A stretch of 62,298 nt of DNA, taken from an uncultured cyanobacterium (GTDB lineage Bacteria; Cyanobacteriota; Cyanobacteriia; Cyanobacteriales; CAWCAG01). The notes under the pieces are model-generated. The model was not told the DNA's origin and did not search any database. It worked only from the letters and a program-made list of their open reading frames with translations. Positions 2,724 to 50,836 of this stretch are shown in pieces. The stretch's first letter is position 1. Every line of letters begins with the position of its first letter. The stretch is taken from assembly GCA_963793425.1 (NCBI GenBank), contig CAWCAG010000002.1:1-62298 (forward strand), written 5' to 3'. The translations under genes and the position numbers were made by a program.

Positions 2724-4733
2724 TCACTTCTCCCAAAGCATAGGACGATAGTAGTCTGCATCTCCCATTAAGCAAGTAACGTACTCCCTTACTTGCAACT
2801 CTAAGCAGCGACGCAGGGTAACTTTGTAACCTGTGTAGGGATGGGTCATTTCACTACGGAGTTTTTCTTCCCAATGTTTGAGGAACTTCTTGAGGGCATC
2901 AGGCAGGAGATAAACACCACCTCGTTCGTCTTGAGGAGTGAAATCTTCAGGAGTGAAGATTTTCTTATTCACCAGGTAAGCCACTTGGGAATCTACAACT
3001 TGAGCGCGAAACTCTTCCATTAAGTCAGAAACTAAGGCAGGATGGTTATCACGGGGGACGTGGAGGCTACCAAAATGGGTATGTAAACCTACAGTTTCAA
3101 TAAAAGAGTGAACAATCTGACTAAGGAGGGTGTAGCCTAAACTGAGTAAGCTATTTACTGGGTCAGTGGGTGGACGTTTGCTACGATGCTCAAAGGTAAA
3201 ACTAGAGTTAAACAGAGAACCCAGTCCCCGGAAATAAAGCTTTGCAGCATTACCTTCATAGCCTCGTAAGGAATCTAAAGATTCTGCTAGGGGTAAGTTA
3301 TCAATAATTTGGGCAATTTCATTGATGGCAATAGTTGCACATTCACTCCTACGACGACGGTTTAAACGCATAAGCAGAACACGGGAGTTATGTAACTTCG
3401 CCCTAACAATAGTTTCTGCTTGTTGACGGGTAAATTCTGGGTCTTCAGCACACCTAGTTTGCTGTGCCAAGTAAGCCACCTTGGCCTGTCCTTCTGTTTC
3501 CAAACGACCGAAGTAACGACCCCTTTGGGAAAGATACAGGACAGGGATGCGCCGGGATAAAGCTAGTTTGATTGCGCCGTGGGTAATGTGGCAACAACCA
3601 AAGAGAATAATCTGACTAACCCGGTTGACGGGGACTTGACAACGTAACTCACCGTGGAAAAAGATCCGGAATTGGTAGTTTTGCGCCCTTAACAGGGAAC
3701 CTTGTTCGATTAGATAAAGAGTAGTCATTTCTTCTGCAAAGTAGTATTTAGGGTTAATAAGAGTTGGTACAGAAGCCTGTTTCTGTAAGTTGCAAACCTT
3801 GGGAGGACGGGAGAGAAAGGAATGAATGTAAATAGGTCGGGGTTTGCGGGGTACACCAGAGGGATCTAGGATTAACTTTCCTTTGCTAGGAAGTCGGGGG
3901 GGTGGTGCAAACACCTTGCCTTGGCGAAATTGGTAGCCAAGAAAGGTAAACTCTTCTTCTGGGGAGAAGATGCGGGTTTTCTCTGGTTGGAGGTTGAGGA
4001 AAATCTTTCTTAGCCAAGTAGCTAGTAAGCTTAAGGTATATTTAGCTTCTTCTAGGCTCGAACAAGCTACGACAAAGTCATCACCGTAGCGAACAAACTT
4101 GATGCCATTACTAAGGCAACTATGGTCAAATTCGTTCAGATACAAGTTAGCTAAAGCACCGGAAAGGATTGAACCTTGCAAAACCCCTTTTTTAGGGTAG
4201 AGACGGCGACCTTGGATAACGATGCCTGACTTGAGTTGTTGCCCAATCAGTTGTAGAATAACTTCCTCAGTTTCCATCTGCTCCAACGCAGCTAGTAGTA
4301 GAGCTTGGCAGATACTATCAAAGAAGTTAGCAATGTCAGATTTAATCACCCAACAAGGCCAGCTTTGGTAGTAGAAGTAGAAGTGTTTGACGGCTATCTG
4401 AATACCACGGTTAGGACGATAGGCATAGCTACAATCGGCAAATTGTTCTTCTAAGGAGAGATAAATTTCTTCTAGCAGCCACCTTTGGACTATGCGGTCT
4501 TTAACTGTGGGTATTCCTAGTAAGCGTTTACCACCATTGCGTTTGGGAAGATAGAATCCTCTAGCTGGGCTAGGAAAATAGGTTTCTTCTCCTAACTGTT
4601 GTTGCAGGGTCTTGAGTTGCTCTGTGGCAACCCCTGCAAACAGGTCTGTAGTGATGCCATCAATTCCTGGGCTACGACTTCCTTTGCGAACCAAGTTCCA
4701 AGCGTATTTAAGTTCAGGAAATGTTAGTTGCAT
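2724..4733 (-). CDS. cas1: Reverse transcriptase-Cas1 fusion
   Basis: N-terminal group II intron-type RT (PGIDG, RLLGIPTVKDRIVQ, GVLQGS, RYGDD) fused to full Cas1 (MTTLYL, LRGYEG, RPPTDPVNSLLSLGY, SDLMEEFR). Confidence 0.97.
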   Translation of the reverse strand: MQLTFPELKYAWNLVRKGSRSPGIDGITTDLFAGVATEQLKTLQQQLGEETYFPSPARGFYLPKRNGGKRLLGIPTVKDRIVQRWLLEEIYLSLEEQFADCSYAYRPNRGIQIAVKHFYFYYQSWPCWVIKSDIANFFDSICQALLLAALEQMETEEVILQLIGQQLKSGIVIQGRRLYPKKGVLQGSILSGALANLYLNEFDHSCLSNGIKFVRYGDDFVVACSSLEEAKYTLSLLATWLRKIFLNLQPEKTRIFSPEEEFTFLGYQFRQGKVFAPPPRLPSKGKLILDPSGVPRKPRPIYIHSFLSRPPKVCNLQKQASVPTLINPKYYFAEEMTTLYLIEQGSLLRAQNYQFRIFFHGELRCQVPVNRVSQIILFGCCHITHGAIKLALSRRIPVLYLSQRGRYFGRLETEGQAKVAYLAQQTRCAEDPEFTRQQAETIVRAKLHNSRVLLMRLNRRRRSECATIAINEIAQIIDNLPLAESLDSLRGYEGNAAKLYFRGLGSLFNSSFTFEHRSKRPPTDPVNSLLSLGYTLLSQIVHSFIETVGLHTHFGSLHVPRDNHPALVSDLMEEFRAQVVDSQVAYLVNKKIFTPEDFTPQDERGGVYLLPDALKKFLKHWEEKLRSEMTHPYTGYKVTLRRCLELQVREYVTCLMGDADYYRPMLWEK

Positions 4734-5043: not shown

Positions 5044-5457
5044 ATGGCCAAAGATTTATTTCATGATGTTGTCAAAGAAGCTCTGATTGCAGAAAAATGG
5101 CAAGTAACCCACGACCCTTTTCCCGTGGATTATGGCGACGTACAAATGCAAATAGATTTGGGTGCTGAATACCTCTTAGCTGCGGAACTCAATGCAACCA
5201 AAATTGCTGTAGAGATAAAAAGCTTTACTAAACCTTCAGCTATTTCTGAGTTTCATACTGCGGTTGGACAATATCTCAATTACCGTAGGGCTTTGCGTTC
5301 CCAAGAACCAGATAGAACTCTTTATTTAGCAGTACCTAGCCAAACCTATGATGAATTTTTTCGCCTGAGATTTATTGAGGAAGGGGTAGAGGAATACCAG
5401 CTTTATCTGCTTGTTTACAACACGAAAACCAGGAGGATTGAGAAATGGATAAAGTAG
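5044..5457 (+). CDS. xisH: XisH family protein
   Basis: AKDLFH...WQVTHDPF...IDLGAE...IAVEIKSF...FHTAVGQYLNY. Confidence 0.95.
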   Translation: MAKDLFHDVVKEALIAEKWQVTHDPFPVDYGDVQMQIDLGAEYLLAAELNATKIAVEIKSFTKPSAISEFHTAVGQYLNYRRALRSQEPDRTLYLAVPSQTYDEFFRLRFIEEGVEEYQLYLLVYNTKTRRIEKWIK

Positions 5458-5780
5458 TTCAGTATCGGCAGATTGTCCGAGAAATACTTTTTGCTCATAG
5501 TCAAGTTAAGCCAGTTTATGGTGATATTGAGATGGGAGTTTTGTTTGATGAGAAGCGTGACCGTTACCAAGTTGTACGAAGCGGTTGGTTAAAAGAAAGG
5601 CGCGTTTATGGGGCATTAATTCATATTGATATTAAAGGTGAGAAAATCTGGATTCAATACGATGGTACGGAAGTTGGTGTTGCTAACGAGTTAACGGAAA
5701 AGGGAATTCCTAAAGAAGATATTGTCCTGGCTTACCATTCTCCTTTTATGCGGCAATATAATGGTTTTGCTGTTAAATGA
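5445..5780 (+). CDS. xisI: XisI family protein
   Basis: MDKVVQYRQIV...IHIDIKGEKIWIQYDGTE...GIPKEDIVLAYH; overlaps xisH. Confidence 0.95.
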   Translation: MDKVVQYRQIVREILFAHSQVKPVYGDIEMGVLFDEKRDRYQVVRSGWLKERRVYGALIHIDIKGEKIWIQYDGTEVGVANELTEKGIPKEDIVLAYHSPFMRQYNGFAVK

Positions 5781-7324: not shown

Positions 7325-8821
7325 TTAACAACGACCAACTAACAATCTTTGTAACTCTAAAAATACTTCTACTAAATCAGGATTAGCTTCTTGAGCAAGA
7401 GCTAAACCTACTTCACAAGCATTCAAAGCTAATTCCCTTTCACCTTTATCTTTATATAAAGTAGCTAAATTACAAAAACTAAAAACCTGCCCTTTCAAAT
7501 CTCCTTGCTTCTCTTGAATCAGCAAAGCTGCCAACAAACTTCTCTCTGCCGCTTTATATTCTTCCAAATTCAAATACGCATAACCTAAATAAGATAAAGC
7601 AGAAGCTACACTCTCCCAATCCTTAATCTCCTTAGCAACTTTTACCCGTTTTCTTTCCCAAATAATTGCTTCGGCTACCCTATCTGAAGCATCACAGGCA
7701 TAACTTAGCCCTTTGAGAGCATCCCGTTTACCGATGTTGTCCTGGGAAACTTCAGCCACCTCTAAACGCTGCTCAAAATAGAAGATTGCTTCTTGGTAAT
7801 TTTCTAAAACATTGTGGGCATTCCCTAAACCTCGCAAACATTCCCCTTCAATGTTGCGATCGCCAATTTCCCTAGCAATCTCCAAACCTTTCTGATGATA
7901 ACCAATAGCTTCTACAGATTTTTCCTCATCTTCATAAATATCCCCTAAAAACTGCATCGCTCTAGCAATAGTTTCGCGATCGCTAATTGACTCAGCTACC
8001 TCTAAAGCCTGCTGACACCATTCCCAGGCTTTTTGAGCATAATCCTTTTCCTCTGTCTTCTCCCTCAAAGCTTTGTAAACACTGGTCAATACTAAAGCTG
8101 CTCTCCCTTGAAAAGAAAGCAAATTATGCTCTTTAGCAAGCTCAAAACTTTGCTTACCATAACTCTTAGCCTGGGCATACTTTTGCAGAGATACAAAAAC
8201 ACTCCCCAAACTACCCAACAAAGCAGCTTGCCCTTGCACATCCTTTAATTCCTGAGCAATTTTCAACCCCTTTTCAAAATAGTTAGCTGCCTGGGAAAAG
8301 TTACCTTCTGTTTGAGCAATATTCCCTAAGCCAACTAAAGCTATCCATTCACCAGCAGAATCACTAATTTTCCTAGCTAAACGTAAATGTTGTTGATGAT
8401 ATTCAGAAGCACGAGTGCGATTACCGATAATATCGTAGAAATTCCCTAAACCGTTGAGACAAGTAGTGTCACAGTCAGCATTAACCTTGTGCAGCAAACT
8501 ATGATAAATCTCTGCTTGTTCGGGGTAGTAACCCCAAATACCTAACAGATGGTGCAACTCTTCATCCATCTGAGAATCTGGGTTTATTACTAACACCTGC
8601 AAAGCTCGATGCCAATCAGGAATATCCCGAAGATGCTCAAAAGCCCTCAAATGGCGATGGGCTTTTTCCAAGTTAGAAGCACTTTCAGAGGGCAAATCTT
8701 CTAAAGTCAAAAAATAAACCACTGCACTATAGGCAGCCAACTCGTCTAAAGGAACAGTATCTATATCAATCTTGAGACTATCGAAAAGCTGCTGACTTTG
8801 CTCCAGAGAAAAACCATCCAT
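7325..8821 (-). CDS. Tetratricopeptide repeat protein
   Basis: Repeated ~40-aa TPR units (LGNI...G...A..Y....L.IA.EI.D); N-terminus resembles the post-NB-ARC helical region of cyanobacterial STAND-TPR proteins. Confidence 0.9.
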   Translation of the reverse strand: MDGFSLEQSQQLFDSLKIDIDTVPLDELAAYSAVVYFLTLEDLPSESASNLEKAHRHLRAFEHLRDIPDWHRALQVLVINPDSQMDEELHHLLGIWGYYPEQAEIYHSLLHKVNADCDTTCLNGLGNFYDIIGNRTRASEYHQQHLRLARKISDSAGEWIALVGLGNIAQTEGNFSQAANYFEKGLKIAQELKDVQGQAALLGSLGSVFVSLQKYAQAKSYGKQSFELAKEHNLLSFQGRAALVLTSVYKALREKTEEKDYAQKAWEWCQQALEVAESISDRETIARAMQFLGDIYEDEEKSVEAIGYHQKGLEIAREIGDRNIEGECLRGLGNAHNVLENYQEAIFYFEQRLEVAEVSQDNIGKRDALKGLSYACDASDRVAEAIIWERKRVKVAKEIKDWESVASALSYLGYAYLNLEEYKAAERSLLAALLIQEKQGDLKGQVFSFCNLATLYKDKGERELALNACEVGLALAQEANPDLVEVFLELQRLLVGRC

Positions 8822-9006
8822 AGTTTTGAGTCGGGTACTTACAGTCTATTTTAGAGAATTTGGCAGCTAGGGAGAGCAAGTAATAATACAACCTACTGGT
8901 TTGTCAGGATTGAATTTGGGTATAGCTTAACTATCAAGTGTACTACCCTTTACCCCTTAACCTTTACCCCTTAACCTTTACCCGTCAATTGAAAATTGAC
9001 AGACTA

Positions 9007-10482
9007 TTACGCCGATTCTCTAGCCACCTTCAACTGAGCAATCAGCTTTTGATAATGCTCCAAAGCTACACTCCTAACCAAACTATGCAAACCTAAAACC
9101 AAGCGATTATTGTGATTAACTCCTTCTTCTACCAAGAAACGGTGAGACAATTCTAATAGGGCTTGCTCTTGTCTTTCTTCGCTACAACCTTGCTGTTCAA
9201 TACGTTTGACCAAATTGCTCAACTGGAGTAACCAACCTTCTACTTGTACAGGTACACGATAGATAGCAGCTACACAAATTAACCAATAAGCGTCAGGAAC
9301 TTGGGTGGCTAAACGTTCAAAAACGGCTTTTAATCTTTGCCTGTTTACTTCCAGCCGTACTTTACGAGTTAACTTGTGCAGCTTCCAATCGTCCTCTGTC
9401 CCAATCGCTTGCTTCGCATCGGCTTCTGCTTGTGCGATCGCATTTTCCACTGCCTCAATCTTAGCCGCCACCTCATGCCAGTAAGCCTGCACATTTCCCC
9501 GAAAAGACTCGTTTATTTCTCCTAAAATTACCCTGAGAACTAAAGGATGCCCTTGATAGGCTCTCCCTAAACGCAGTAACAGAGGTTTATCCTTTGAAGT
9601 AGAACTAATATCAAAACCCATGATTTCTATGAGTGCTTTCTGTTCCTCTTCCGTCAACCCTTGCAAAACCTGACAATGCCACAGTTGTTGATAGCGTTGC
9701 TCTACAAGCTGGGTTGGTAACTCTTGGGAAGTAATAATGATGCGACTTTGACAATTAGGTGCTGTAAGAATATTAAGAAAGAAGCGTTGCCAAAAAGAGT
9801 CTTGAAAACTTCCCCAACCCTCTTGCTCGTTACCTGTGAGTAAGTTTTCTAAAGAATCGATTAATACTAATACTCGCTGCTGCTGCAAATAGTCACTTAT
9901 TTTGAGCAAAAGCTGTTCTGGGTGACATTCTTGTGGAGAAATATTTACCTGTAGCTTTTCTAACCACTGCCTAGCAACGGTAGCAAAGTCTTTGTTTTGT
10001 TGAGCCGCTTCAAAACTAACTCTGAGGAAACCTTGCTGCCAATCTTTATCAAACCACTCTTCCATTTCTAGACTGATTCTTTCTGCTAAGGCTGTTTTGC
10101 CAATGCCTGTTAAACCCAAGATGATGAGAAGGCGAGAAGAATTAAGCAACTGATTTTTTAACTGTTGGGTTAGCTGTTTCCTACCTACCCAACAATCATC
10201 ATAGGCTGAAAAGTTAATTGGTAAGGTTTCTTTTACTTGGGAACTGGGTTTCTTAGCTTCACCTCTCCCCTGAATTAAATCCTGGGGTTCCAATCCCAGC
10301 GCATCACAAATTTCTTCAAACTTGGAAATGTAGACCCGCTTACTATTGATAAAGTTATTGACCGTAGAAAGGGCCATTTCTAAATGCCCTGCTAAGGCTC
10401 CCTGAGTTAGGAAACCATTACGCTCTAGGGACTGTAAGACTTCTGCTTTACGCTCAGGATGGATTCTGGCAGAACGAGCCAT
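9007..10482 (-). CDS. HTH + STAND (NB-ARC-like) P-loop NTPase
   Basis: N-terminal HTH (TQGALAGHLEMALSTVNNF), Walker A GLTGIGKT, Walker B LVLIDSLE, IIITSQ, GHPL (GxP) and LHSLVRSVA motifs. Confidence 0.9.
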   Translation of the reverse strand: MARSARIHPERKAEVLQSLERNGFLTQGALAGHLEMALSTVNNFINSKRVYISKFEEICDALGLEPQDLIQGRGEAKKPSSQVKETLPINFSAYDDCWVGRKQLTQQLKNQLLNSSRLLIILGLTGIGKTALAERISLEMEEWFDKDWQQGFLRVSFEAAQQNKDFATVARQWLEKLQVNISPQECHPEQLLLKISDYLQQQRVLVLIDSLENLLTGNEQEGWGSFQDSFWQRFFLNILTAPNCQSRIIITSQELPTQLVEQRYQQLWHCQVLQGLTEEEQKALIEIMGFDISSTSKDKPLLLRLGRAYQGHPLVLRVILGEINESFRGNVQAYWHEVAAKIEAVENAIAQAEADAKQAIGTEDDWKLHKLTRKVRLEVNRQRLKAVFERLATQVPDAYWLICVAAIYRVPVQVEGWLLQLSNLVKRIEQQGCSEERQEQALLELSHRFLVEEGVNHNNRLVLGLHSLVRSVALEHYQKLIAQLKVARESA

Positions 10483-17148: not shown

Positions 17149-20100
17149 TTAAGTAGGGGCCTTAATTGCCGCGACCCATTGAGCAATCATCGCTTGTTTA
17201 GCTTTCTCTAATAGCTTTGTCGCTTGGCTTATCAGGTGGGCGCTGATGCCCTCTAGTAGTTTGCCTGCGGGGTAAAAAATCTCTCGGAAATCTTCAAAGG
17301 ATTTAATGTGGTTGAGAATATCTGCCGCATCTTCAAGCTCTTCTATTGGTATGGGGGGTGGTATTCGACTAGCAATTAATTGGAAATCAGGACAAGACTG
17401 GGATACCTTATCCTCAATTCTCCGGGTGACGCATTCGTAAACAACCGACTCAATAGAGTCTGGCTCATGTCTAATCGAATATGTTCTTTCCCCTTTAAAT
17501 TTGCGCTTGTGAATTTTAAACCCAAGCATCCGAATAGCTCTATTAAGATATTGAACTGGTGTGCATTTACCAACTTTGATTTTGAGCCTTCGCCAGTTCT
17601 TTTTACCTTGCCTCCAGAAATTAATCACTCTTTGGTCAATCTGACTCCAAGAGGTTCCCTCCTCCAAAAAGTCTTTGATGCCCATTTCGATGAGGGTTTT
17701 AACAAACAGAGTCTTGGACTTAAATTCAGTTGGGGAAACCCCTAAACCGTAACCACTCTTTTCTGGGTCAGTAAAGAAATCGAACTTCTTAAAGAATTTC
17801 TGTCTGTCCAACTGAAGGGCTATTTCTGGGTTATTAACGAAGAATTTGAGTTCTTGTTTAGAGATAACTCTTTTGCGCCTGTCTTCAAGTAACCTGACGG
17901 TTTCAGGAGAAAAAGCAGGGATTTCAACCTGAACCTCTTTCTCTTCTACTTCTCCTGTCTTCTCGTTGGTAGCCTCAACAGTCTCACTAACAACGATAGT
18001 TTTCTCTTCAATTCCCGGCAGTCTATCTAAGAGCCTACGCTTTTTAACAGCAGCTTTTTGTTCGACTGTGGCCGATACATCACGAGAAATTTCATCGGCT
18101 CTCTTGGTGGTGATGTTCTCAGCATGGAACTCTTGAGTAGCCTTAGCTTGTTCTACTGCTTCAATCTCTTCAGTTATACCTTTACTAATCTCGTTGTATT
18201 TCTGGACAACAACGTCGGTAACAGGGTAGCCTGAGTCTTCTAGAGCGTAGCGTAGACATCGTTTCAGGTTTTGGCGTTCGTAATTCTCAGTGGCTCTAAG
18301 TTGGCATTCGTAGGCGTAAAACTCATCATCATGAAGTTTCATCATCTGTTGCATGAGCTTGAGGTATTGTTCTTTAGCCTCCACGCCATCTAGTACAGAT
18401 TCACCATTGAGAATGGCGTATTCTTCCCAAGCTTTTTTGATTTCATCAGGAATGAAAGAATCGGATACCTCGTCGTTGCTAACTGCCCTGGTCGCAGGTA
18501 CGACGATAAGGGTCGCGTCTTTGTCTCTAACCCTAGCAATTAACTGCATCTGCTGGTTAGTCGAAAGTACGCCATAAAACAGGGCATATATTTCACTAAA
18601 ATAGCCCTTAATATCAACGTTTAAGCCAGCTTCACCAGTAGGAGAATACAAGAGAATTTGTATCCTATGCTTAACCAGATAACCGGGACTATCGGCATAA
18701 AATTGGGCAGCTTCGGATGTCCCCGCTTTAGTTGAGTCGAGTCGGAAGGTTCTTAGCCCCCTAGCTTTAAGTTTGTTGTCAAGAGCTTCTAGCTCCTTTC
18801 GGCTGTCACTACAAACAGCAATATTGACCCCTTCTGGGAGATTGAGAATGGCTTGTTCGACTTCGCTTTTATCCGGTTCTACTATTTCCCCGTTCTCATT
18901 TCTGCTGGCTGTGATGAATTTGGTTTCTGGTCTGTGGGCAGTAAAGGTATTTTCTGTAACTGACACACTAGCCTCACTGCCAAGGACGGAGCGAAGTAAT
19001 TTGACTTCTTTGTCGGTTAGATGACCATCAAGGCAATATATTTTTGAGGTTCTTGTTAATGCTTCACTCAGAAGTCTTTTGACCTTGGACTTAAACCGAA
19101 GATTTTTGTCCTTGGCCAAAGAGCGTAAGACACTAACGGTTTCATCTAGAACGAGAATCCTCTCATCAAAATCTTCAGAGGAAAAATGGGGAATTGAATG
19201 CAGGCAAAGAGCGATACAGCTTTTGGGGTCATGAATGAGGGCGTATTCATCCTGGTTTTTTAATTCCGATTGGAGATGATAGAAGCCCGATTCAAGACAA
19301 AATTGCAGCAGCGGCCCATTTCTGTAACCAATACTTAAAACTCCTTTACCAGGGTTCTCCTTAATAATTCTTTTTATTTCATGAGTTTTACCTGTACCAG
19401 TGCCAGATTTAACAGCAATGGCTTTGGCTTCAGTTGAGGAGGAGATATCAACAAAACGTTGATTCTGCTTGATGTCAGGGGACAGCCGACGAGATTTAAC
19501 CCACCTATCCCAGTCATCAATCTTTTTCTTCTCCTGGTGAGACAGTCGATAAAACTCTTCCGGGGATAGGTACTCAATTGGTTGCCCCGGCTCGATTTCA
19601 TCAATATCTTGCCCTGTTTCTTTATCAACTTGTCCCCACCAGGCAATTTGAACTTCTAAGCCTTGGTCTTGGATAAAGTTAATCTGGCGGCCCCAGCGCT
19701 TCATAACATGGGGATTAATAATATCTCCGGCATCAGGCATGAGGATGGCAAGATCATAACCAGCCGTAGCCGCTTTAACTTGTTCAGGGGAACTAGTAAA
19801 TAATCCTCCCGCCGCGCCTATGCAATCGATACCTAGTCGAGCCGAAACAATGTATGGCTTGAGGATTCCTTCACAAAGACTGACTACTCTGAGGGTCGGT
19901 AGGGTTCTATCTCCAGTGGATCTATCCCCATCGCCGTTAGGACATCCCAACCGTACCTGGCTACTTTCTCTATCTTGGGGCTGATAAACACTGTTTTGAT
20001 TCCGAAAAACACGTACGGTGGGGGTTCTGTCTCTAACCGCTTCAATACTCTGGCTTCGTAGGTCTTGTACTCCATTCCTCTGACTGGAGTTTCTCTCAAC

Positions 20101-20873
20101 GACTCCATTTCCATCTGGTCTATTTCGTCCCAGTACCTTCTTTCTCTTTTCTCTCTTTTCTGCCTGCTTTTGCTCCCCATCAGGTTCAACTCCTTTAACA
20201 AATGTTATTGGCAATTCGCCATTCTTGAGATGACTAGATTTTAAACCCTTAGCCCATCGGTACTTACCACTTTTTGTAGCACCATCTACCCTGATTTGCC
20301 ACCCTATGGCTCCACCCTTATGGTCAAAGGCTACACAAGCATAGCCAGAAACTTGAGAAAGAAGCTTTCCTCCATATCCCACCCCAGGAAGGTTGGTAGG
20401 GATATCGGCAGGTAACATAGCATGGGGAGAAATCGAGAAAAATAGCCCTTCTGTTATCTGAATATTGGTTAAGCCACGACGCTTTAAATCCTCCCTATGG
20501 CTAGAATTAAGTCCTAATACCTGGGCTATTTTCCTAATAGCTTTGTCCCGCTCAGGAGCTGATAATGCCTCCTGGTATTGACGGCGTTTGTCAGCTTCTC
20601 GCTTGGCTCTTAATTGCTGCTGCTGTCTAATCCAGAGTTCTTTGGGCAACCAGTCTTTGGCTTCTGTGGGTGGGGCATAAACTCCCCAGATACCAGAGGG
20701 GCGGCTTTTTTAAATTCATAGCCAGGGGCATCAACACCGCCATCTATGTATGTGTGGCAAAGGATTAAATCATCTTCACCGTGGCGACAATCGCCGGAGA
20801 TGTCAGAGCAGATGGGGCAAGGATTTGCTCTGTTGGTAGGAGTTCGTTTTGCTTGTCTGGTAAATGTGTTCAT
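17149..20873 (-). CDS. Large cyanobacterial plasmid replication protein (Zn-finger, Toprim-like primase, SF2-type helicase; CyRepA1-like) with an apparent 1-nt frameshift near 20700
   Basis: CPIC...C...CH zinc finger in ORF 20610-20873 continues in -1 frame as SGIWGVY...LPKELWIR (ORF 17149-20649); CEGILKP, PDAGD, SGTGTGKT, LVLDE motifs. Confidence 0.85.
19884..20180 (-). CDS. Putative 98-aa gene nested out of frame inside rep
   Basis: AAAGGAG 9 nt before ATG 20180; MGSKSRQKREK...PYRPSE* coincides with a low-complexity stretch of the Rep frame. Confidence 0.6.
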   Translation of the reverse strand: MGSKSRQKREKRERRYWDEIDQMEMESLRETPVRGMEYKTYEARVLKRLETEPPPYVFFGIKTVFISPKIEKVARYGWDVLTAMGIDPLEIEPYRPSE

Positions 20874-22331: not shown

Positions 22332-22475
22332 GTTACCACCTGGTAACGCTTGGTAACTACCACGGCAATAGATGGTAACTACCAAATAGGAGTGACAAAA
22401 TGGCTAAAAACATTAGCAGAAAAAGCTTTCAAGACATAATCGACCTGGATTACCACGAAGATGAGGTAACTACCA
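22332..22475. promoter_or_regulatory. Cluster of GGTAAC(TACCA) operator-like repeats
   Basis: Palindrome GTTACCACCTGGTAAC 22332-22347; TGGTAACTACCA at 22351 and 22373; GGTAACTACCA at 22465. Confidence 0.55.
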
Positions 22476-23137
22476 CCTATACAAAAGAAGACTTAGTGAG
22501 GTTAATCGGCAAATCTGAAAAGACGATCCGAAATTGGGTCAAGGCCCTCAAGAATGCTTACCACTGGGAAGCAATTTCAACATTCCACACTAAAAGCGAA
22601 ACAGGAAAATTACTCTATAGCAACTTCACCTACGAGCAACTATTAAGCATCAAAAACTATCTTGCTAGCGGAGGTAATCTGGAGGGCTGGGTGAAGTCTA
22701 TAAGCCAGCAAAAGTCTACTGATTTTGAAGAGGGGGAATTAACAACCTGTAAGCAATCGTTCCCCAGAAAAGAGCTTGAGCAAGAAAGTAACTTGGCTAA
22801 TGACAATCCCCACCAAATAGAAGTACAGCCTCTTACAGAGCTACCAGTATTGCAAGCTGAAGTTGTAGAATTTACGCCGCCAAAGGAGCTACAACAGCGC
22901 TCAATCAATGACAAGTTACAAGATTTGGTACAGCTAGCAACGGCGAAAACTGCTCAAGATATCGAGGAAGCTAACGCAGTAGCAGCCCAAGCAGATGCGG
23001 CGAAACAACAGCTAACTCAACTGTCCAAGCTTCAGCAGATGAGCGAACGAGCGAAAGCTTCTAAAGAGGCTAACCAAGGGACTCTAGAGCAAATGGAGCA
23101 GATGCTAAAAAGTATCAATTCTTCAGTGGGAAAGTAA
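22400..23137 (+). CDS. HTH + coiled-coil protein; possible -1 frameshift extension to 23244
   Basis: TKEDLVRLIGKSEKTIRNW HTH; RBS AGGAG; ends at G GGA AAG TAA. Confidence 0.8.
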   Translation: MAKNISRKSFQDIIDLDYHEDEVTTTYTKEDLVRLIGKSEKTIRNWVKALKNAYHWEAISTFHTKSETGKLLYSNFTYEQLLSIKNYLASGGNLEGWVKSISQQKSTDFEEGELTTCKQSFPRKELEQESNLANDNPHQIEVQPLTELPVLQAEVVEFTPPKELQQRSINDKLQDLVQLATAKTAQDIEEANAVAAQADAAKQQLTQLSKLQQMSERAKASKEANQGTLEQMEQMLKSINSSVGK

Positions 23138-23246: not shown

Positions 23247-23417
23247 ATGCCTCGCCGAAGAGATAATCCCAAGTTTACCCAGGTCAGTGGCTACATTCAA
23301 AAAGAATTAGCCATCAGCTTTAAAATAGCTTGCCAATCATTGGGGTTGAGCTTCGCACAAGGAATCGAACAGTCAATAAAACTATGGCTCAAGCAACAAA
23401 AAAAAGAAAACCAGTAA
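23247..23417 (+). CDS. 56-aa ribbon-helix-helix-like protein (not in ORF track)
   Basis: AAGGA RBS; MPRRRDNPKFTQVSGYIQKELAISFKIACQSLGLSFAQGIEQSIKLWLKQQKKENQ*. Confidence 0.7.
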   Translation: MPRRRDNPKFTQVSGYIQKELAISFKIACQSLGLSFAQGIEQSIKLWLKQQKKENQ

Positions 23418-23433
23418 ATAACCACTAACGAAG

Positions 23434-23631
23434 ATGACTTCCCTTAAACCACCAACTCCTTTGAGTATTGCCCTCGGTAAGGCGATATACGAACTGCAAA
23501 AACGCCAACACCAAAACCCAGACAAAGAAACTGAGGAACTGCTCAATCAAATAGCCACTTACCAACAAAAATTAGTGACAGTTAGTTCGTACCTAACTGC
23601 CACAAATGAGAAAAAGACACAAGCCGCTTAA
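23434..23631 (+). CDS. Small hypothetical protein
   Basis: 65-aa ORF in co-oriented cluster. Confidence 0.5.
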   Translation: MTSLKPPTPLSIALGKAIYELQKRQHQNPDKETEELLNQIATYQQKLVTVSSYLTATNEKKTQAA

Positions 23632-23669
23632 AACTCGTTGACTCAAACTCACAGACCTCAATCATAGCA

Positions 23670-23792
23670 ATGAAAACCAGAAAAATTATAGCCCTAGCTC
23701 TTAGCGCCCTCCTGACGTTCACTTTGGTTACTTTGGTCAACATCTCCTCAGTAACAGCCCAAGCATCCCAGTGTAGAGGGGCAGGAAGGTAA
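23670..23792 (+). CDS. 40-aa secreted peptide precursor ending RGAGR (PatX/PatS-like; not in ORF track)
   Basis: MKTRKIIALALSALLTFTLVTLVNISSVTAQASQCRGAGR*: basic N-region, hydrophobic core, A-Q-A cleavage motif. Confidence 0.65.
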   Translation: MKTRKIIALALSALLTFTLVTLVNISSVTAQASQCRGAGR

Positions 23793-23797
23793 GAAAA

Positions 23798-23840
23798 AGC
23801 AGACTAGGTGCTGTGTCTCCAATACATCAACTAGTCTGCT
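23798..23840 (+). terminator. Stem-loop directly after the peptide gene
   Basis: AGCAGACTAG ... CTAGTCTGCT 10-bp perfect inverted repeat. Confidence 0.6.
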
Positions 23841-23885: not shown

Positions 23886-24125
23886 TTGATTATGACCCCA
23901 GAAGAATTAAATAAAAGCAAACAGAGGTTAGAGAAGCTAATTTCCTCTCCTTCAACTCCAGAGTTATTAGAACAAAAACTTCAGCAACTCAATAAAAAGG
24001 TTGAAGCAATAACCCAACCACCAGACTGGCTGAATGAATCTCTAACATCTCTCGACAAAAAACAAGCAGAACTAGATCAGAAAATCAAAGACTTAAAGCG
24101 CAAACGGGAGGGAGTAGATGAATAA
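23886..24125 (+). CDS. Small coiled-coil hypothetical protein
   Basis: 79-aa ORF rich in L/E/K/Q. Confidence 0.6.
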   Translation: MIMTPEELNKSKQRLEKLISSPSTPELLEQKLQQLNKKVEAITQPPDWLNESLTSLDKKQAELDQKIKDLKRKREGVDE

Positions 24126-24506
24126 TCTCCCAGAGCCAACCGAATCCCCTCCTGAAGCCGACTTAGAAATGATTGAAGATGGCTTAGAAGAGTTCAAATT
24201 TGAAGAATGGCTAGAGCCAAAGCATTTGACACAGCCATTTCGACCCAACGTACTATTGAGCAATCAAAAGGTAATTACATCGGGCTACAGAGCGATATAG
24301 AAGGAACCAAACAAAGTGCGATCGCCTATGACCTTAATAGAGCCAAAACTTACAAAGATATAGCTTCTAACGCCATCAGCAAGGGTCAATTAGCTCTTGA
24401 GTTACAGATTCAGGTCAACCAACTAGAAGATAGCCAAACCAAACTCAATGAGTTGGATGGTGAATTGGAGCTTTTTCAAAAGAAGTTAGGTGAGTATAGC
24501 TCTTAG
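24118..24506 (+). CDS. Hypothetical protein(s): overlapping ORFs 24118-24300 and 24207-24506, possibly one frameshifted gene
   Basis: GGAG RBS before 24118; coiled-coil character in the second ORF. Confidence 0.45.
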
Positions 24507-24645
24507 CTTTTAGCTCTTAGCTCGACGGGGAAGGGGTAAGGGGTAAAGGGTAAAGGGGTAAAGAATCGACTTATTTGGTTTTTGATAACCGGATTTTGTG
24601 TAATCAGGGAGTAGCCCCTGGTGATAACAGGGGCTAAAGATAAAT

Positions 24646-27600
24646 ATGAAAAAAGAAGATTTAATTCTAGCAATCGGTGGTATTTCTTGCAGTACAGCCA
24701 TCGGTTTTCTATTTGGGGCTGCGGTAACTAGTAGTCTGTCAAGAAGAAACTGACGGATACAATTTAGTTAACTTGATGCGAGCATCTTCAGTGGTAAATT
24801 GCCAATCGACTGGAGTTGAAGTTCGATTCCTTCGTTGCTCCCAAGCCTGCACTTCCTGGATTAAAGTCTCCTCAAAAGGAATACGCCGATTAAGACATTG
24901 CCTGTTTAAAACACTCAATTCAATTTCAGCCATATTTAACCAACTACCATGTTTAGGAGTATAGTAAAACTCTAATTTGTCTAGTATTCGGCGAGCTTCA
25001 CAAGGGCAAAATGCTTTGTACAATGAGGCTTTGACATGAGTATTTAGGTTATCTTGAACCACTCGAATTTTGATAGCCTCTGGGTAACATTCATCCACTA
25101 AGTATTTCATTTGTTGAGCATAATCGATGCTGGTACGTTGGTCAGTTACCTCAACGTGTCTCCAAGCTTTTAAAGGTTCAAAAAACATGAATAAATTTCT
25201 CACTCCTTCTCGTTGGTATTGATAATCAAAGCGTTCAGGTTTTCCAGGTTCAGCAGTTAGGGGTTGTCGCGTTTCGGAAATTAATTGTTTAGAGCTTTCG
25301 TCAAAGCAAACTAACGGGTAACAAGGGTCATAGGGGCGGGTATAAAGCTCTAAAACTTCTTCCATCTGACAAACAAACTCTGCATTAGCTTGAGGAGGAA
25401 TTACCCAACATTCTTGCAGCCAAGGTTTGATTTCGTTTTTTTTAAGACTTGTCTAACACTTTCATGAGAAATACTTTCCACATATCCTAAAACCACCATT
25501 TCGTCAGCTAGTAATCGTAAAGTCCAACGGCTAGAACCTGTTGGAGATTTCCCACAAGCTATGGCAATTAAATGAGCTTCAGCTTCTCCATCTATCTTTT
25601 TTAGTTTCAAGGAGTTTTTCCGACCAGGACTCAGTGCTTGTTCTAATCCTTCTTCGACAAATCTTTGTCTAACTCTCTCAATGGTTCTCGTACTGATATC
25701 CAATGCTTGGCTAATCATCTGGTCATTCCACCCCCCGTTATCTTGATTAATATCTGCTTTGAGTAAGATACGAGCATGATTAATTTTTCGGGCAGCAGCT
25801 TTCCCTTTTTGGGTTAATTCTTGCAGTGAAAAGCGTTCATCCTCACTCAGAGAGACAATATATTTTTTAGCTGGCATTAATAGCGTAGATTTGGCAAGAT
25901 TTACATCTCACATTATCCGTCATTATTACTTTGACAGACTACTAGTTCTCCTGGGAAAATAGCGGCAGCTTCTATATTGGGGGCATTACCTGCGGCTGGT
26001 ATTTCTGGGATAGTAATCGACCACAAGGCTACGAAAAAGCTCTCTAAGGTTGATAGAGCATTAGCTGAGAAGAAAGTAGAGCTAAATAGGCTCTACAGAC
26101 TAGAAATGAAAAATGAGGAGCTTATCGGGGATTTAAAATATCACAAAGCTCAACTCCAAGGTAAGACGAAGGAACTCGAACAAGTAGGGTTATTCGCTAA
26201 TGTACAGACTCAGCAAATTGATAGCCTCAAATCTAACATTGAGAAACTAAAACGGGCGATAGCTTCCAACCAAGAGGAAATAGACTTCTTAAACTCTGAG
26301 ATTAAAGACTGGGCAAGGAAATACGAAGAAGATTTAACCGAGGAAATTGCCAGAGAAGTAGCTCACATCAAACAGAAGAACATTCAGCAGATTTGTACTG
26401 AAGACTTTAGTTTACTCAAAGAACAGCGAACGCTGGATGCGGAGTATCGGCAAGTCATTCTCAAATGTCGTGACGAGGTGCGTTTAAAGACCCAAGGCTG
26501 TCGTCAAGCGGCAGAGAACTATAACGAACTGCTACACAAATTCAGGCATCAATTCAGCACTGAATCTGAGGCCCTTAGAAAGATTATCAAACTGCGAGAA
26601 ACTCAAATCCAGTTCCTACAAAGAGAAAAAGATGGTGAGTTACTAGAACCTGATTACCCCAAAGACTCATTAGACCCAATCATCAAACTCGGTGGGGCAT
26701 TCGCTCGTGAAGTTTGGGATTTATCTAAACAGACCATTCCTTTAAAGCTAGAAGGGCTTAAAGGCGATTACAACGGGATTAGTAGCATTGGCTTTAGCTA
26801 CTCAAGTAAACACTCACCAGAAGCGATTATAGGCTTCATTAAGAGCCAGCAGGAACGTCTAACCCAGCATTTAGGAATCCATAAAATCACTAAGTTTGAG
26901 AAGTCACCTCTATCGGCTCTTTTGGTTGTCTCATTTAGAGTACTTCCAGCACTAACCCAAGACAGCATCAAAGAGCTAGTAGGTAGTGGTGAAGAGTTCC
27001 TAAAGTGGGTAGGGAATCAGTCTTACCGATTCCGCTTAATTGCTGCTCCAGGCTTCGGTAAATCTCCAACCATCATTGTTCTGGTTTCCCACATCTTAAA
27101 AGTGGGAGGAAAAAGAGCGAATATTCCCAGTGGGCAGTTAATCCCAAACATTGATTTAACGCTCTCCTATCCAGGTATTGATGGTAGTGAGAAAGATATT
27201 GATTACCCTTTAGAGCCATTCGTTAAATATCGAACTTGGGAAGATGCCCATACTTCTTTTGCTGAGTTTCATGATGAATGGAAGTACCGAGAAAAGCATA
27301 GAGAATACAGACAGTCCAGTTTCAGTTTATGGGTATGGGATGAATTTGATAATTCTCTGACTAGTGCTAGTAATTCCAGAGAACTAGGCGCAAGCTTTAA
27401 GGAGTGTTTAAAACAGGCACATCATACCAATATGGGCTTTATTATTGCAGGTCAATCGGTCAATACTAAAGCCTTACCTGGATTCACCAACAATGACCGT
27501 AATACTTTATTTACTGAGATTGTTTGCGGCATCCCGGTTATTCGCGAATTTCTCGATATGTATGGCAAAAAGCTAGGTAGTAAAAAGGTAGCTACCATCC

Positions 27601-28059
27601 TAGCTAATCTAGACAATATTGAAGAATGGACTAACAGTAAGAATAAAGCAATTACGGATACGGCACGAGAATATAGAGTAGTTCTGGCTGTTGATGAGAA
27701 AAGTCCTAAACTATTTTTCTTACCTAATCTAGATAACTACGATTTAGATAAGCAAACTGTTAGTAATTCAGCAAAAAATAGAGATACTTTTGTGTCCAAA
27801 GAAGGTACAGAAGCTGTGGGGGGAGACAATCAGACCTGTCGCTGAAGCCAAGTCAGAGGAGAGGTTACAGCCTCCCCAGTCCCAAACCCCATTCACAGCT
27901 TGTGTATCCCCCACCCCCATAGTCCAAAATAATAGTAAACCTCATTGCCCTGGTTGCGGTAGCAATAAAGTAGGTAAGAAATCGAAAGACCGTTTTGTTT
28001 GCAAAAACCCGAATTGTAAACGCAAAACCTTTGTGAAAAGTAAAGCGGTTTGGAAATAA
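24646..28059 (+). pseudogene. Membrane-anchored coiled-coil P-loop ATPase (FtsK/HerA-like) with C-terminal Zn ribbon; interrupted by IS630 and frameshifted near a G6 run
   Basis: Removing the IS restores MKKEDLILAIGG...AAVTSSPGKIAAASILGALPAAG in frame with ORF 25977-27845; AAPGFGKS and WVWDEFD motifs; CPGCGS...CKNPNC in +1 frame after G6 at 27818-27823. Confidence 0.75.
24731..25942 (-). mobile_element. IS630 family element (two-ORF frameshift transposase 25401-25877 + 24739-25365)
   Basis: TIR GTAGTCTGTCAA/TTGACAGACTAC, TA duplication, DE...DNLNTH...TPKHGSWLNMAEIE motifs, A-run at ORF junction. Confidence 0.96.
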
Positions 28060-43588: not shown

Positions 43589-46500
43589 CTACAAACCATT
43601 GCCGATTAAAATAAATGGGCCCCAATAGTAAGGATGGGCTAAGCGATTCTGTGTTGGAGCTTCTAATCCCTCCTCAAACCTGGCACGGATCTCGATTATA
43701 CTGCGAGAGTCGTTACCAAGAGAGTTGTATTCCCCATTAATCAAGGCGATTTGCGCCTGACGTAAGGCTTCAGCCTTGCTGTATTTCTGTGTGGCTAAAG
43801 CAGCATAGAAGGCATTCATCAAAGTTTGGGTTCCGCCATCATCTACTGACCATAGGGAAGCGATCGCAGCTTTAGCCCCGGCATCCTGCATTAAGTAGCC
43901 AAAACCAAGAATTTCTCGCCCATCCTCACCTAACTCTCCCCCTAAACCAGTTTGGCAAGCACTGAGAACAACCAAGTCAACGTTATTGATACTCCATTTT
44001 TCATCCACTTCTTTTAGGGATACGGTTTCTCCACTCCCAAAGAGGATAAATGATTCTTCTGGTTTGCCAGGAACTAGAGCCGCATGGGTGGCGAAGTGAA
44101 GCACTGTGTAGGTGTCCATGTTGTCTTCAAAGGTGTCTTTATTAAACGCCTCATCCACCAACTTATCTGTGTTCGGAATAGTAGAAGCAAGAATTTCTAC
44201 CTCCCGTCCCGCAAACTTTAACCCGGAAAAGGGAAAGGTGCGATCGCCTACTTGCACGCTATGGTTTCCATTCACAAACGCCCCAGCTAAAATATTCAGT
44301 TCCTGGGAAGGTTCATCATTCCAATCCGTGAGATTGCGGGCGGTAATATTATTAACCCGGAACCTTTCTACCAGCCACTGTTCCCCATCGTGGAGGGCAG
44401 CTAGGGGAATATAGCGCAGTTGACCATCAGGAGCATAAATTATCGTTTCTGCTTCTGCGGTAGTGAGGTCATTTTCTAGGGGTTTGATTAGCCAGTTATA
44501 GAGTTTTTGACCATGTTTTCTCACATCGGGAGAACGTCTCTTCAAAGCTTGGCGGTAGGCAACGATGGTGCGGTTCAATTCCTCTCTTGTCACGGTAACG
44601 GTGCGACGGATGGGGGGAGAGTTGGGAGTGGTGAGGAGGAGTTCCAGGCGGTCTTCCAGGATGAGGGGATAGAGGAGGACAGCATTTTGGTCGATATCTT
44701 GCAGGTCATCGGAAATGCTTTTTAATTGGTCGAGGGGGACATTTCTGCCTTGGGAAATGAGGCTAAGTTGTTGCACCCAAGCTTGCACATCTTCCCTTTT
44801 TGTGAAGCTAGTCAGCAAAGTAACTAATTCTTCCCGTTGGTTCGTTAAGGTTTTAAGGCGTTGCAGTTGAGCTTCGCTTCTTTGGGCCAGGGGAATGCCC
44901 TTGAGTTCCTCTTGCAATTGGCTGAGTGCTTTACCGTTGGCAATGGCTTTGTCTTGCAGTTGGGCATATTCGGTGATGATTTTTATTTCTGGGGCTAAGT
45001 TAACTACTTTCTCATCCCCTTCTCCCCTGACATTTTGCAGATAGTCTTCCAATTCCTGAACTTTGAGGAGATCCAGCACTTGTTGGGCTTCGAGGATGCG
45101 GTTTTGTTGCAGGAGGAGGTCGCCTAGTTTGCGGTATGTGTCAGCTACGGTGGCGGTGTAGGATTCTTGTTGGTCTGTTGGTAATCCTTTGATATCGGCG
45201 CGGATGGTTTCGTAGATGTTGACTGATTGTTTGAGGAAGATGATGGCTAGTTGCGGTTGGTTTTGTTTTTCGAGGACATAGCCGAGGTTGTTGAGGATTG
45301 TACCTTCACCAGAGCGATCACCCACCTCCTGCTTGATAGTCAAAGCTTGCTGAAAGTAAACGGTAGCTTTTTTGTATCTTTCTAAATTATTAGAAACTCC
45401 GCCTAAATTATTGAGAGTAGTACCTTCACCAGAGCGATTGCCTACTTCCTGACTGATAGCCAAAGCTTTCTGAAAATAAGTAATGGCTTCCTGATATTTT
45501 CCCAAACCTCGGTAAACTTCGCCCAAATTGTTGAGAGTAGAACCTTCACCACTCCGATTACCTACTTCTTGCCTGATAGCCAAGGATTCCTGATAGTAAG
45601 TGATCGCCTTTTCATATTTCCCTATGCTTTGATAAACTACCCCCAAATTGTTGAGAGTAGTACCTTTCATCAGACGATTACCCACTTCCCGATGAATAGC
45701 CAAGCTTTGTTGTAGGTAGGCGATCGCATCCTCATATTTCCCCGTACTTTGGTAAACTAACCCCAAACCATTGAGGGTAGTGCCTTCTCCACTTCGATCA
45801 CCTACTTCCTTACTGATAGCCAAAGCTTGTTGAAAGTAGGTGATCGCATCCTCATATTTCCCCGTACTTTGGTAAACACCACCCAAATTGCTGAGGGTAG
45901 TACCTTCTCCACTTCGATTACCTACTTCCTTACTGATAGCCAAAGCTTGTTGAAAGTAGGTGATCGCCTCTTCATATTTCCCCGTACTTTGGTAAACAGT
46001 ACCCAAACCATTGAGGGTAGTACCTTCTCCACTTCGATCACCTACTTCCTTACTGATAGCCAAAGCTTGTTGAAAGTAGGTGATCGCCTCTTTGTATTTC
46101 CCTGTGCTTTGGTAAACAGTACCCAAACCATTGAGAGTAGTACCTTCTCCAGCCTGATCACCTATTTCCCGTCTTATAGCTAAGGCTTGCTGATAATAAG
46201 CAATAGCCTTCTCATCTTTTTCCAAACCTCGGTAAACTTCGCCCAAATTACTGAGAGTATTACCTTCTCCAGAGCGATTACCTACTTCTTTGTGGATAGC
46301 TAAAGCTTGTTGAAAGTAGGTGATCGCCTCTTCATATTTCCCTGTGTTCTGGTAAACTGACCCTAAATTGTTGAGGGTAGTACCTTCCATTCGTCGATTA
46401 TCTACTTCTCTATGGATAGCCAGAGCTTGTTGAAAGTAGTTGATTGCCTCTTCATATTTCCCTGTGTTCTGGTAAACTAACCCTAAATTGTTGAAGGTAG

Positions 46501-47297: not shown

Positions 47298-48032
47298 ATG
47301 CAGCGTCACCAAGAGTCAGCCTTTCAACGTCGTCAGGCAGAAGCCATAGTTATGGCCAAACTACACAATTCCCGTAAGCTGTTACTACGGATGAACCGGA
47401 GCAAAAAGATTACTAAGGTGAATAAAGCCGTTAATAAGATTGCTCAGATTATTGATAAGCTACCCTCAGCTAAATCGGTTGAGAGTTTGTTAGGTTACGA
47501 AGGGCAGAGCGCTCATTTGTATTACCAAGCCTTGGGAGTACTTTTTAATGGCAAGTTTACTTTTGCCAAGCGTACCCGTCGTCCTCCCACTGACCCCATT
47601 AACAGTCTGCTCAGTCTAGGTTATACTCTATTACACCAAAATGTTTTTTCCTTGGTACAGGCAGTAGGTTTACACACCCATTTTGGTAATCTCCATACTC
47701 CCCGCCGTAATCATCCGGCTTTGGTTTCTGATTTAATCGAGGAGTTTCGCGCTCCAGTAGTGGATTCTTTTATTGCTTATTTAGTTAATTCCAAGATTTT
47801 TAAGCAAGGGGATTTTACTCCGGCAGATCCAAGGGGTGGGGTTTATCTTCATCCTAGTTCTTTGCGGAAGTATCTTAAACACTGGCAGGAGAAGTTACAG
47901 ACTCAAGTTACCCATCCCCATACAGGTTATAAGGTAAGTTATTATCGTTGTTTGGAGTTACAGGTATGGGAGTATATTGCTTGTTTGAAGGGAGAGCAGG
48001 AGGTTTATCGACCAATGATGTGGAATATTTAG
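47298..48032 (+). pseudogene. cas1: N-terminally truncated Cas1, no cas2 follows
   Basis: Aligns by eye with the C-terminal ~245 aa of the RT-Cas1 (LLGYEG, RPPTDPINSLLSLGY, SDLIEEFR); in-frame TAA immediately before the ATG. Confidence 0.88.
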
Positions 48033-50834: not shown

Positions 50835-50836
50835 GG

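Follow-up and report, generated by a model that had tools for sequence, protein, structure and literature searches.

The action of PatS, PatX and HetN on HetR is the textbook example of bacterial pattern formation by a diffusible inhibitor, and to our knowledge all known signals of this kind carry RGSGR or RGTGR and are encoded on the chromosome. An open reading frame (ORF) of an uncultured filamentous cyanobacterium raises the question of whether a plasmid may encode a similar exported peptide and, if so, whether its target would be the host's own HetR or another receptor. The DNA analysed, hereafter the window, measures 62,298 nt and is the entire contig C2 of the host genome, which comprises 5.28 Mb in 9 contigs. 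An earlier note, made from the letters alone, had proposed that a 40-codon ORF ending in SQCRGAGR encodes a secreted mimic of PatS or PatX or a plasmid communication signal. This ORF was found at 23670–23792 on the plus strand, as one of three copies in the host. It is very probably a real gene for a small PatX-like exported pro-peptide, belonging to a group that occupies one particular slot in plasmids. The gene and the parts of its product are as follows:

23670–23792, plus strand: peptide gene, a 40-codon precursor running from ATG to TAA, for an RGAGR peptide predicted to be exported

23670–23759, plus strand: signal-peptide-like part, M1–A30, assigned by hand and from conservation of the site in the family alignment

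23760–23789, plus strand: predicted mature peptide QASQCRGAGR, from the translation, with the RGAGR codons at 23775–23789

The 40-residue translation of the ORF, MKTRKIIALALSALLTFTLVTLVNISSVTAQASQCRGAGR, was inspected by hand. A charged start (K2, R4 and K5) is followed by an uncharged hydrophobic core of 18 residues, I6–V23, and the (−3,−1) rule is obeyed at two sites, V28-T29-A30|Q31 and A30-Q31-A32|S33. The earlier note had described a signal peptide with an A-x-A site. The signal-like N-terminus stands, as judged by hand, and the A-x-A site does not: AQA|S is not conserved, with P or Q at −1 in the relatives, and gives way to a cleavage-type site [VL]-T-A|[QN] that is retained in four of five aligned family members, the fifth reading A-T-A|N. 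By the same manual inspection, the window peptide carries the Sec/signal peptidase I (SPI) type of signal peptide expected of PatX, a signal anchor also being possible. The stop codon directly follows RGAGR and leaves a free C-terminus, as in PatS, which has no signal peptide and acts from the cytoplasm. Assignment as a lipoprotein was rejected because there is no lipobox of the form [LVI][ASTVI][GAS]C; the cysteine is preceded by A-S-Q, and glutamine is unfit at −1. Scans of the peptide and its neighbours against Pfam, PHROGs and PADLOC returned no informative family, a search of the ESM Atlas with the peptide gave a top score of 0.82, within the range reached by shuffled sequences, and no Shine-Dalgarno sequence was seen ahead of the ORF.

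The ORF stands above chance because of the tails of its paralogs, the mostly silent differences between them and an excess of RG.GR over permuted motifs. RGAGR occurs four times in the six-frame translation of the host genome, and three of these occurrences are at the extreme C-termini of short signal-peptide ORFs, namely the window ORF, C3:88788–88910 (C3a) and C3:63774–63932 on the minus strand (C3b). The C3a product is 90% identical to the window peptide; that of C3b has 52 residues, a different N-terminus and the common ending …LTAQPSQCRGAGR; and the same last eight residues, SQCRGAGR, end all three. Nucleotide divergence among the copies is 14–30%. Of the 16 codons that distinguish the window copy from C3a, 12 do so silently and 4 with replacement, and the RGAGR codons vary only silently (GGG/GGC, GCA/GCT and AGG/CGC). 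Six of the 3102 signal-peptide-like small ORFs of the genome contain RG.GR, compared with zero to two for five permuted motifs, and besides the three copies these six comprise the host PatX, another chromosomal PatX-like gene and an ORF that is likely due to chance.

Outside the host, one homolog emerged when 5.8 billion proteins were searched with a word index; it has 40 residues, is 73% identical, ends in QCRGGGR and comes from a metagenome-assembled genome (MAG) labelled Spirulinaceae. Profile searching with HMMER of 1.84 billion representatives recovered only the host C3b paralog, one MAG protein and one noise match, and the window-type profile, applied to 40 and then 400 genomes of the order, matched only the host itself. 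Such blanks understate the family, because the homolog of the sister species (G001) was missed by profiles and found by synteny. It is an ORF of 51 residues in the same operon slot, ends in SQTRGSSRR and is 47% identical to the C3b paralog (E 6e-11). Over the five family members, the conserved part reads [VL]-T-A / x-x-[ST]-Q-[CT]-R-G-x-[GS]-R, so that the polar tail and the cleavage-type site, rather than the hydrophobic segment, are best conserved. Syntenic homologs and analogs, on which the earlier note had made its proposal depend, thus exist, and the last residues are their conserved part. Close variants of the region also occur in sediment metagenomes, where one contig of 729 nt spans the ORF with no listed difference inside it.

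The peptide gene belongs to a co-directional operon whose products are, in order, a 245-residue protein, a 56-residue ribbon-helix-helix (RHH)-like protein, a 65-residue protein, the peptide, a 79-residue coiled-coil protein, proteins of 74 and 220 residues, and an ATPase of 735 residues. The operon is found in four host copies (C2, C3 twice and C4), three of which hold the peptide gene; the 65-residue ORF and the peptide gene occur together in C2, C3a and C3b and are both absent from the C4 copy. Relatives of the ATPase, at about 34% identity, were found in 12 Nostocales plasmids and 39 genome contigs, mostly from Nostoc and also from Mojavia, Symplocastrum, Scytonema, Caldora, Symploca and some MAGs, for which labels such as 'Chroococcales' on plasmid contigs are unreliable. 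The intact 220-residue protein is homologous to a gene product of Nostoc pNPM10 (33% identity, E 1e-24), and the related operon adjoins a CyRepA1 gene wherever annotated.

The slot was surveyed in 37 loci with sufficient upstream DNA (35 + 2), eight more having been dropped for too little upstream sequence. A signal-peptide ORF ending in [RK]GxG[RK] is present about 1 kb upstream of the ATPase gene in eight of the 37 (L023, L025, L032, L043, L045, L048, L052 and L053), where L052 and L053 are two ends of one contig and L045, which lacks the N-terminus, was scored separately from the main census. Three loci have near-variants, RGVSRR, RGQSRR and RGGTNRR, and 26 have no such peptide, among them L024 with a visible remnant and L022 with a signal-peptide ORF bearing another tail. 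Since 11 of the 37 related loci and three of the four host operon copies carry it, the peptide gene is an optional, variable cassette and not part of the plasmid backbone to which the earlier note had assigned it. Being optional, the cassette is more in keeping with a host-directed accessory gene than with a core regulator of the plasmid.

Searching with the peptides of these Nostoc-type loci returned 29 proteins of 43–71 residues (P0003–P0031), all unnamed or annotated 'hypothetical protein', for example WP_181154580.1 of pNPM10 and WP_179071020.1 of pC052_H. Most read MKFYS…PSLASF…P-H-R-G-x-G-R-R, with 30–40 hydrophilic, proline-rich residues after the signal peptide. They are like the window peptide in their slot upstream of the 220-residue gene and the FtsK-like ATPase gene, in their architecture, and in a third motif residue, x, that is neither S nor T; RGAG[RK] is itself present in four of them (P0007, P0012, P0013 and P0021). 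They are unlike it in their length of 50–70 residues, their proline-rich spacer and their ending HRGxGRR, at times followed by ELNG or ESNG. By its slot position and its signal peptide with C-terminal R-G-x-[GS]-R (x other than S or T), the window ORF fits this plasmid-slot RGxGR group, and both common descent and convergence of the two types are possible.

The resemblance to PatX was assessed with the NCBIfam model NF047413 (PatX, Asl2332 type; curated cut-off 30 bits). Of the 29 Nostoc-type peptides, 24 matched at 14.7–23.5 bits, under the cut-off, and P0025 carries the precomputed family PF28278. The hetR-linked PatX genes of relatives of the host scored 43.8, 35.4, 32.0 and 17.3 bits, and those of the host and the sister species had no match. 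Among the 24 Nostoc-type peptides whose motif is exact, eight have Q at x, six K, four A, four V, one D and one N. No column of the C-terminal block varies more than x (2.27 bits), which is flanked by invariant glycines, and otherwise identical peptides (…PEPVPHRGxGRR) vary only at x, which is K, V or A. A second chromosomal PatX-like gene of the host, at C7:547445–547711 on the minus strand (L087 2446–2712), encodes a signal peptide followed by …KRSDSRGDGRREEDE…, its motif being RGDGR; it scored 26.4 bits against NF047413, is unlinked to hetR, and in a word-based search had no relative except itself. With this gene, variants other than S and T are not confined to plasmids.

The presence of hetR in the host, a point raised in the earlier note, was confirmed. 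The gene lies on C5 (L001 847–1746) with a patX of 71 codons (L001 384–599) directly upstream, at 250 bp, whose product has a signal peptide, …AERGSGRFDTGPFQG, and the motif ERGSGR. Because this hetR-linked patX is unrecognised by NF047413, surveys based on that model undercount PatX outside Nostocales. The host HetR retains the PatS6-contacting residues R223, E253, D256, D270 and D278, all of which are invariant in 12 HetR sequences, and a Peptidase_S13 gene of the PatP family is present (355 bits). The best nifH match in the host, whose genome is 98.6% complete, reached 215 bits against a model cut-off of 394, and the organism is very probably neither diazotrophic nor heterocystous. Since there is no nifH, heterocyst suppression cannot be the role of the peptide in this host.

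According to the available portions of PMC12756182, PatX is exported via a Sec signal, export is required for activity, and the S13 peptidase PatP liberates HRGTGR in the periplasm; this hexapeptide binds HetR at 88 nM and dislodges it from DNA. Table S3 of that paper, as far as it was accessible, names the PatP family as S13 peptidase and contains 'plasmid' three times, two of them about PatP homologs. The genome survey described in those portions, the latest for PatX, took only matches above the trusted cut-off of the model and would therefore miss the plasmid peptides by design. The PatX motif is given in the accessible part of PMC7761841 as RGSGR or, in a few alleles, RGTGR. In the structure of PatS6 with the HetR hood, as presented in the available text of PMC4649674, the peptide pairs as a β-strand using four hydrogen bonds of the main chain, its two arginines bind E253, D270′ and D278′, its serine adds one hydrogen bond, to E253, its C-terminal carboxyl is near R223, and the side chain of the residue before RG is irrelevant. 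Binding of RGAGR to HetR is chemically plausible because only the serine hydroxyl is lost in the peptide and the C-terminus is already free without trimming.

PatX and the window peptide are alike in being short precursors with an N-terminal Sec signal and R-G-x-G-R at or near the C-terminus, the design that the earlier note had recognised, and many of the plasmid peptides further share with PatX a proline-rich stretch and a histidine before RG. The differences are that the third residue is A in the window peptide and Q, K, V, D, N or G in its relatives, instead of S or T; that the window gene stands within a plasmid operon and has neither hetR as a neighbour nor a DIF1 promoter ahead of it; and that the window peptide, with 40 residues, has hardly any spacer between signal and motif and a conserved Q-C before RG. 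PatS (17 residues) is like the window peptide in that the pentapeptide is the extreme C-terminus, so that the carboxyl near R223 is free without trimming (PMC4649674, available text). HetN, which like PatS carries RGSGR, is unlike it in being a large reductase-like protein.

We propose that a Sec-type signal peptide or signal anchor would carry the C-terminus across the cytoplasmic membrane, and that signal peptidase would cleave after the conserved V/L-T-A to free about ten residues, QASQCRGAGR. Further trimming, perhaps by the host PatP-type S13 peptidase, could give (C)RGAGR with a free carboxyl, which would diffuse in the periplasm of the filament, be taken up and fill the PatS/PatX pocket in the hood domain of HetR. 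With a third residue other than S or T, a weaker or altered HetR ligand would be expected, that is, a partial inhibitor or a competitor of the host ERGSGR, through which the plasmid may bias HetR-controlled behaviour of the host. As read from sequence, this whole chain, including HetR as the target of the exported peptide, is a tentative reading that we hold to be quite possible although short of probable. A weaker or competing ligand, or a signal for a different receptor, is as likely as a plain inhibitor.

Several observations weigh against this chain. The hydrophobic segment of 18–21 residues is nearly of membrane-anchor length. The window gene is on the plasmid-like C2, away from hetR and patX on C5, and is neither hetR-linked nor DIF1-driven, with no DIF1 motif (TCCGGA) within 19 kb and the nearest 19 kb away. 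Its operon is damaged, in that an IS630 element splits the ATPase gene and about 450 bp are lost from the 74- and 220-residue genes (24213–24732). The window peptide has no NF047413 match at E ≤ 10, a result to be read with the narrowness of the model, which also leaves the host's own hetR-linked PatX unmatched. In hhalign, the window type and the Nostoc type align over only six motif columns (CRGAGR to HRGQGR), with a probability of 2.3%; as homology is not demonstrable beyond the motif, their tie rests on slot, architecture and motif. Residue 254 of the host HetR is T and not E.

The same applies to the third residue. RGAGR of the window departs from the RG(S/T)GR that characterises PatX, as do RGGGR and RGSSR of its relatives. 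In 29 distinct plasmid-type peptides (24 of the Nostoc type, the L052 peptide with Q, and the window type with A three times and G once), x is one of A, G, Q, K, V, D and N, with S and T wholly absent, which argues against a simple copy of the HetR inhibitor; the near-variants RGSSRR of P0018 and the sister species have S at x and a fourth residue other than G. All seven hetR-linked PatX ORFs found, by contrast, have S (6) or T (1); they come from 14 of 15 hetR loci that were counted, 7 of the 14 being without such an ORF within 1.5 kb. The contrast between plasmid and hetR-linked peptides gives a Fisher p of about 1e-7 (computed by hand), which is overstated since relatives are not independent. 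The third residue seems to matter for HetR, because host genes are strictly S/T and the plasmid peptides strictly avoid both.

What makes the group of interest is that a plasmid-borne set of putatively exported peptides keeps the R-G-x-G-R frame and varies exactly the third residue, which offers a set of natural variants (A, G, Q, K, V, D, N) for testing the role of this residue in the HetR pocket. It also provides a specific instance of a mobile element that may disturb the developmental signal of a multicellular host or put it to its own use. A literature search found no paper mentioning RGAGR or RGQGR in cyanobacteria, and none on plasmid-borne PatX-like genes among the titles and abstract openings listed, a scope outside which lies Elhai & Khudyakov 2018, which reportedly defined PatX and may bear on the point.

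The flanks of the gene contain three features that bear on its transcription:

23798–23840, plus strand: hairpin after the peptide gene, composed of an inner stem and an outer one of 10 bp and beginning 6 nt past the stop codon

23575–23603, minus strand: terminator-like hairpin of 11 bp followed by T5, inside the 65-residue ORF and present in all three copies

23638–23665, plus strand: promoter-like TTGACT-16-AATCAT, ending 4 nt before the ATG

The first of these is the 10-bp hairpin that the earlier note had attributed to the gene, and it folds at −23.4 kcal/mol (z −5.3), with 0 of 200 shuffles folding as well. Its C3a counterpart has the same shape, a different sequence and −19.7 kcal/mol (z −4.0), and C3b has none (z +0.5). 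It is not a canonical terminator, because no T-run follows it on the plus strand. Both hairpins flanking the gene are terminator-like on the minus strand only, with T5 after each, and a single arm substitution in the C3b copy of the upstream one pairs only as G-U on the minus strand (by hand). No minus-strand gene or conserved promoter that would explain them was found; no minus-strand promoter-like site is common to all three copies (341 nt scanned around the window copy), only C3a and C3b having a weak TATGAT on that strand, shortly before the start codon. An antisense ORF of 53 residues, 23582–23743 on the minus strand, was rejected as a real gene, being kept in C3a and lost in C3b. The stretch AATCATAGCAATG at the promoter-like site is identical across all three copies; promoter-like sites in the region occur at chance level (3 found, 2.9 expected), and this one is a lead only.

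Among the explanations other than the HetR chain, an orthogonal plasmid signal was considered, in which the peptide would be exported to a receptor other than HetR, with the hypervariable x setting specificity as in quorum-sensing pherotypes. Along the filament, it would signal that the plasmid is present, or at what density, and it would control its own operon, and possibly DNA movement via the FtsK/TcpA-like translocase. Enterococcal iCF10 and iAD1, Bacillus Phr and arbitrium AimP are made from short precursors that are mostly export signal, with activity in the last 5–10 residues, and are encoded on the mobile element at the head of an operon; enterococcal pheromone plasmids, which an orthogonal signal would resemble, encode inhibitor peptides. 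Such a signal would account for the variability of x (2.27 bits) between invariant glycines, also in peptides identical elsewhere, and for the avoidance of S and T, and it accords with the location in a co-directional plasmid operon with an FtsK/TcpA-like ATPase, with a MobA-type relaxase gene 6.6 kb downstream of the stop codon, and with the lack of a DIF1 promoter within 19 kb. The likeness to Phr and arbitrium systems drawn in the earlier note was not upheld, as no RRNPP/TPR or PrgX-type receptor gene adjoins the window gene and the motif matches a host signal already known in cyanobacteria. Family scans found no TPR, HetR-hood or other ligand-binding family among the neighbours, the nearest TPR ORFs being at 7325–8821 and 43589–47023. 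This weighs mildly against an orthogonal signal. The absence of the cassette from 26 of 37 loci and one of four host copies also counts against it, since a receptor in the conserved part would then usually be without its signal, and the resemblance to PatX in architecture, HRG motif start and hidden Markov model score would be left unexplained. We regard an orthogonal signal as rather unlikely, though to be taken seriously. Unlikely too, in our estimate, is that the group as a whole consists of diversified plasmid PatX look-alikes in which x tunes them as competitors or as HetR ligands of altered strength that jam or bias cell-fate signalling. If this were true, a plasmid could keep its host cell out of terminal differentiation, and plasmid lineages would use different signal 'dialects'.

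The same hydrophobic segment could instead be the uncleaved anchor of a small membrane protein that exposes a short basic tail on the outer side of the membrane, as a part or accessory of the translocase machinery (for instance a factor for exclusion or assembly) or as a peptide akin to type I toxins, checked by antisense RNA. Its 18–21 uncharged residues have the length of a membrane helix, the plasmid gene is close to that of a membrane-anchored ATPase, and flanking hairpins that are terminator-like on the minus strand only make antisense transcription conceivable. Conservation is, however, highest in the polar tail and the cleavage-type site and not in the hydrophobic segment; the 30–40 hydrophilic, proline-rich residues of the Nostoc-type peptides are unlike type I toxins; the three copies share no minus-strand promoter-like site; the antisense ORF is lost in C3b; and no lipobox is present, with Q before the cysteine. 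Taken together, these points make a membrane protein quite improbable. It is hardly credible that the ORF is open by chance alone or is a decaying, functionless remnant, a view for which its shortness, its missing Shine-Dalgarno sequence and family match, the broken window operon and the rarity of the subfamily (the host only among 401 genomes of the order, and host C3b plus one MAG protein in 1.84 billion) could be invoked. Frame and tail are retained in three copies with mostly silent differences, homologs exist in the MAG and the sister species, distant plasmids show the motif again in the same slot, and the nucleotide divergence of 14–30% argues against recent duplicates that had no time for selection.

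The surroundings of the peptide gene in the window comprise the following features:

17149–20649, minus strand: CyRepA1-family plasmid replication gene, 1166 residues (NF042913, 304 bits against a cut-off of 200)

22400–23137, plus strand: first gene of the operon, 245 residues, conserved in the C3, C4 and sister-species copies, no family found

23247–23417, plus strand: RHH-like ORF, 56 residues (ParG, E 0.0058; 56B_RHH, E 0.0081; both under the cut-offs)

23434–23631, plus strand: helical ORF, 65 residues, directly upstream of the peptide gene, no Pfam or NCBIfam family

23886–24125, plus strand: coiled-coil ORF, 79 residues, downstream of the peptide gene, weak coiled-coil matches only

24207–24506, plus strand: remnant, 99 residues, of the 220-residue gene of the operon, with about 450 bp present in C3 missing

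24728–25945, minus strand: IS630-family element, splitting the ATPase gene in its 5′ part, about 30 codons in

25977–27845, plus strand: C-terminal part, 622 residues, of the membrane-anchored FtsK/TcpA-like ATPase, which has 735 residues when intact

Regulators and a replication gene had been placed nearby in the earlier note, and indeed RHH-like small ORFs surround the peptide gene and the CyRepA1 gene is 3 kb away. Other copies of the IS630 element, 99.9–100% identical, are found elsewhere in C3 (two) and in C5, and the flanks of the insertion are contiguous in C3; the element was the only match when the region was compared with plasmids by blastn. The intact ATPase paralog (L026 1249–3456, minus strand) has a membrane segment at its N-terminus, followed by a coiled coil of about 200 residues, a P-loop domain and, at the C-terminus, a zinc ribbon, and matched no Pfam or NCBIfam family. 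Its predicted model (pLDDT 68) gave as top Foldseek matches the FtsK motor 6t8o (E 5e-11) and TcpA 6o1x (E 3.6e-10), with TM-scores that are low (0.21–0.41) owing to the long helix, and is thus a fold-level lead only. Judged from this model, the protein may represent an undescribed family of DNA translocases of CyRepA1-type cyanobacterial plasmids. The ATPase operon was not found in viral contigs.

From its gene content, contig C2 looks like a plasmid, with two ParA/ParB pairs, the MobA-type relaxase, an integrase, a reverse transcriptase (RT)-Cas1 fusion with type III CRISPR genes, and insertion sequence (IS) elements. The RT-Cas1 fusion gene, a second, shorter Cas1 and the type III set (Cas10/Cmr2, RAMP) lie at 2724–4733 (minus strand), 47298–48032 and 50977–58502. 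Further genes encode a XisH/XisI pair (5044–5780), a NACHT/NB-ARC ATPase beside a TPR protein (7325–10482, minus strand) and a CHAT-TPR protein of 1144 residues (43589–47023, minus strand); all of these belong to the accessory or defence-like cargo typical of cyanobacteria and have no relation to the peptide gene. The final 11.6 kb of the window (50665–62298) are 99.97% identical to C3:1–11634, and this segment is therefore either shared between replicons or collapsed in the assembly.

Among the related replicons, the two loci L052 and L053 are inverted copies at both ends of one 25-kb contig. In the Nostoc plasmids of L023, L024, L025, L088 and L089, genes for a GIY-YIG nuclease and a protelomerase come after the operon, and the records are marked linear. 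All these replicons, L052/L053 included, may therefore be hairpin-ended linear plasmids.

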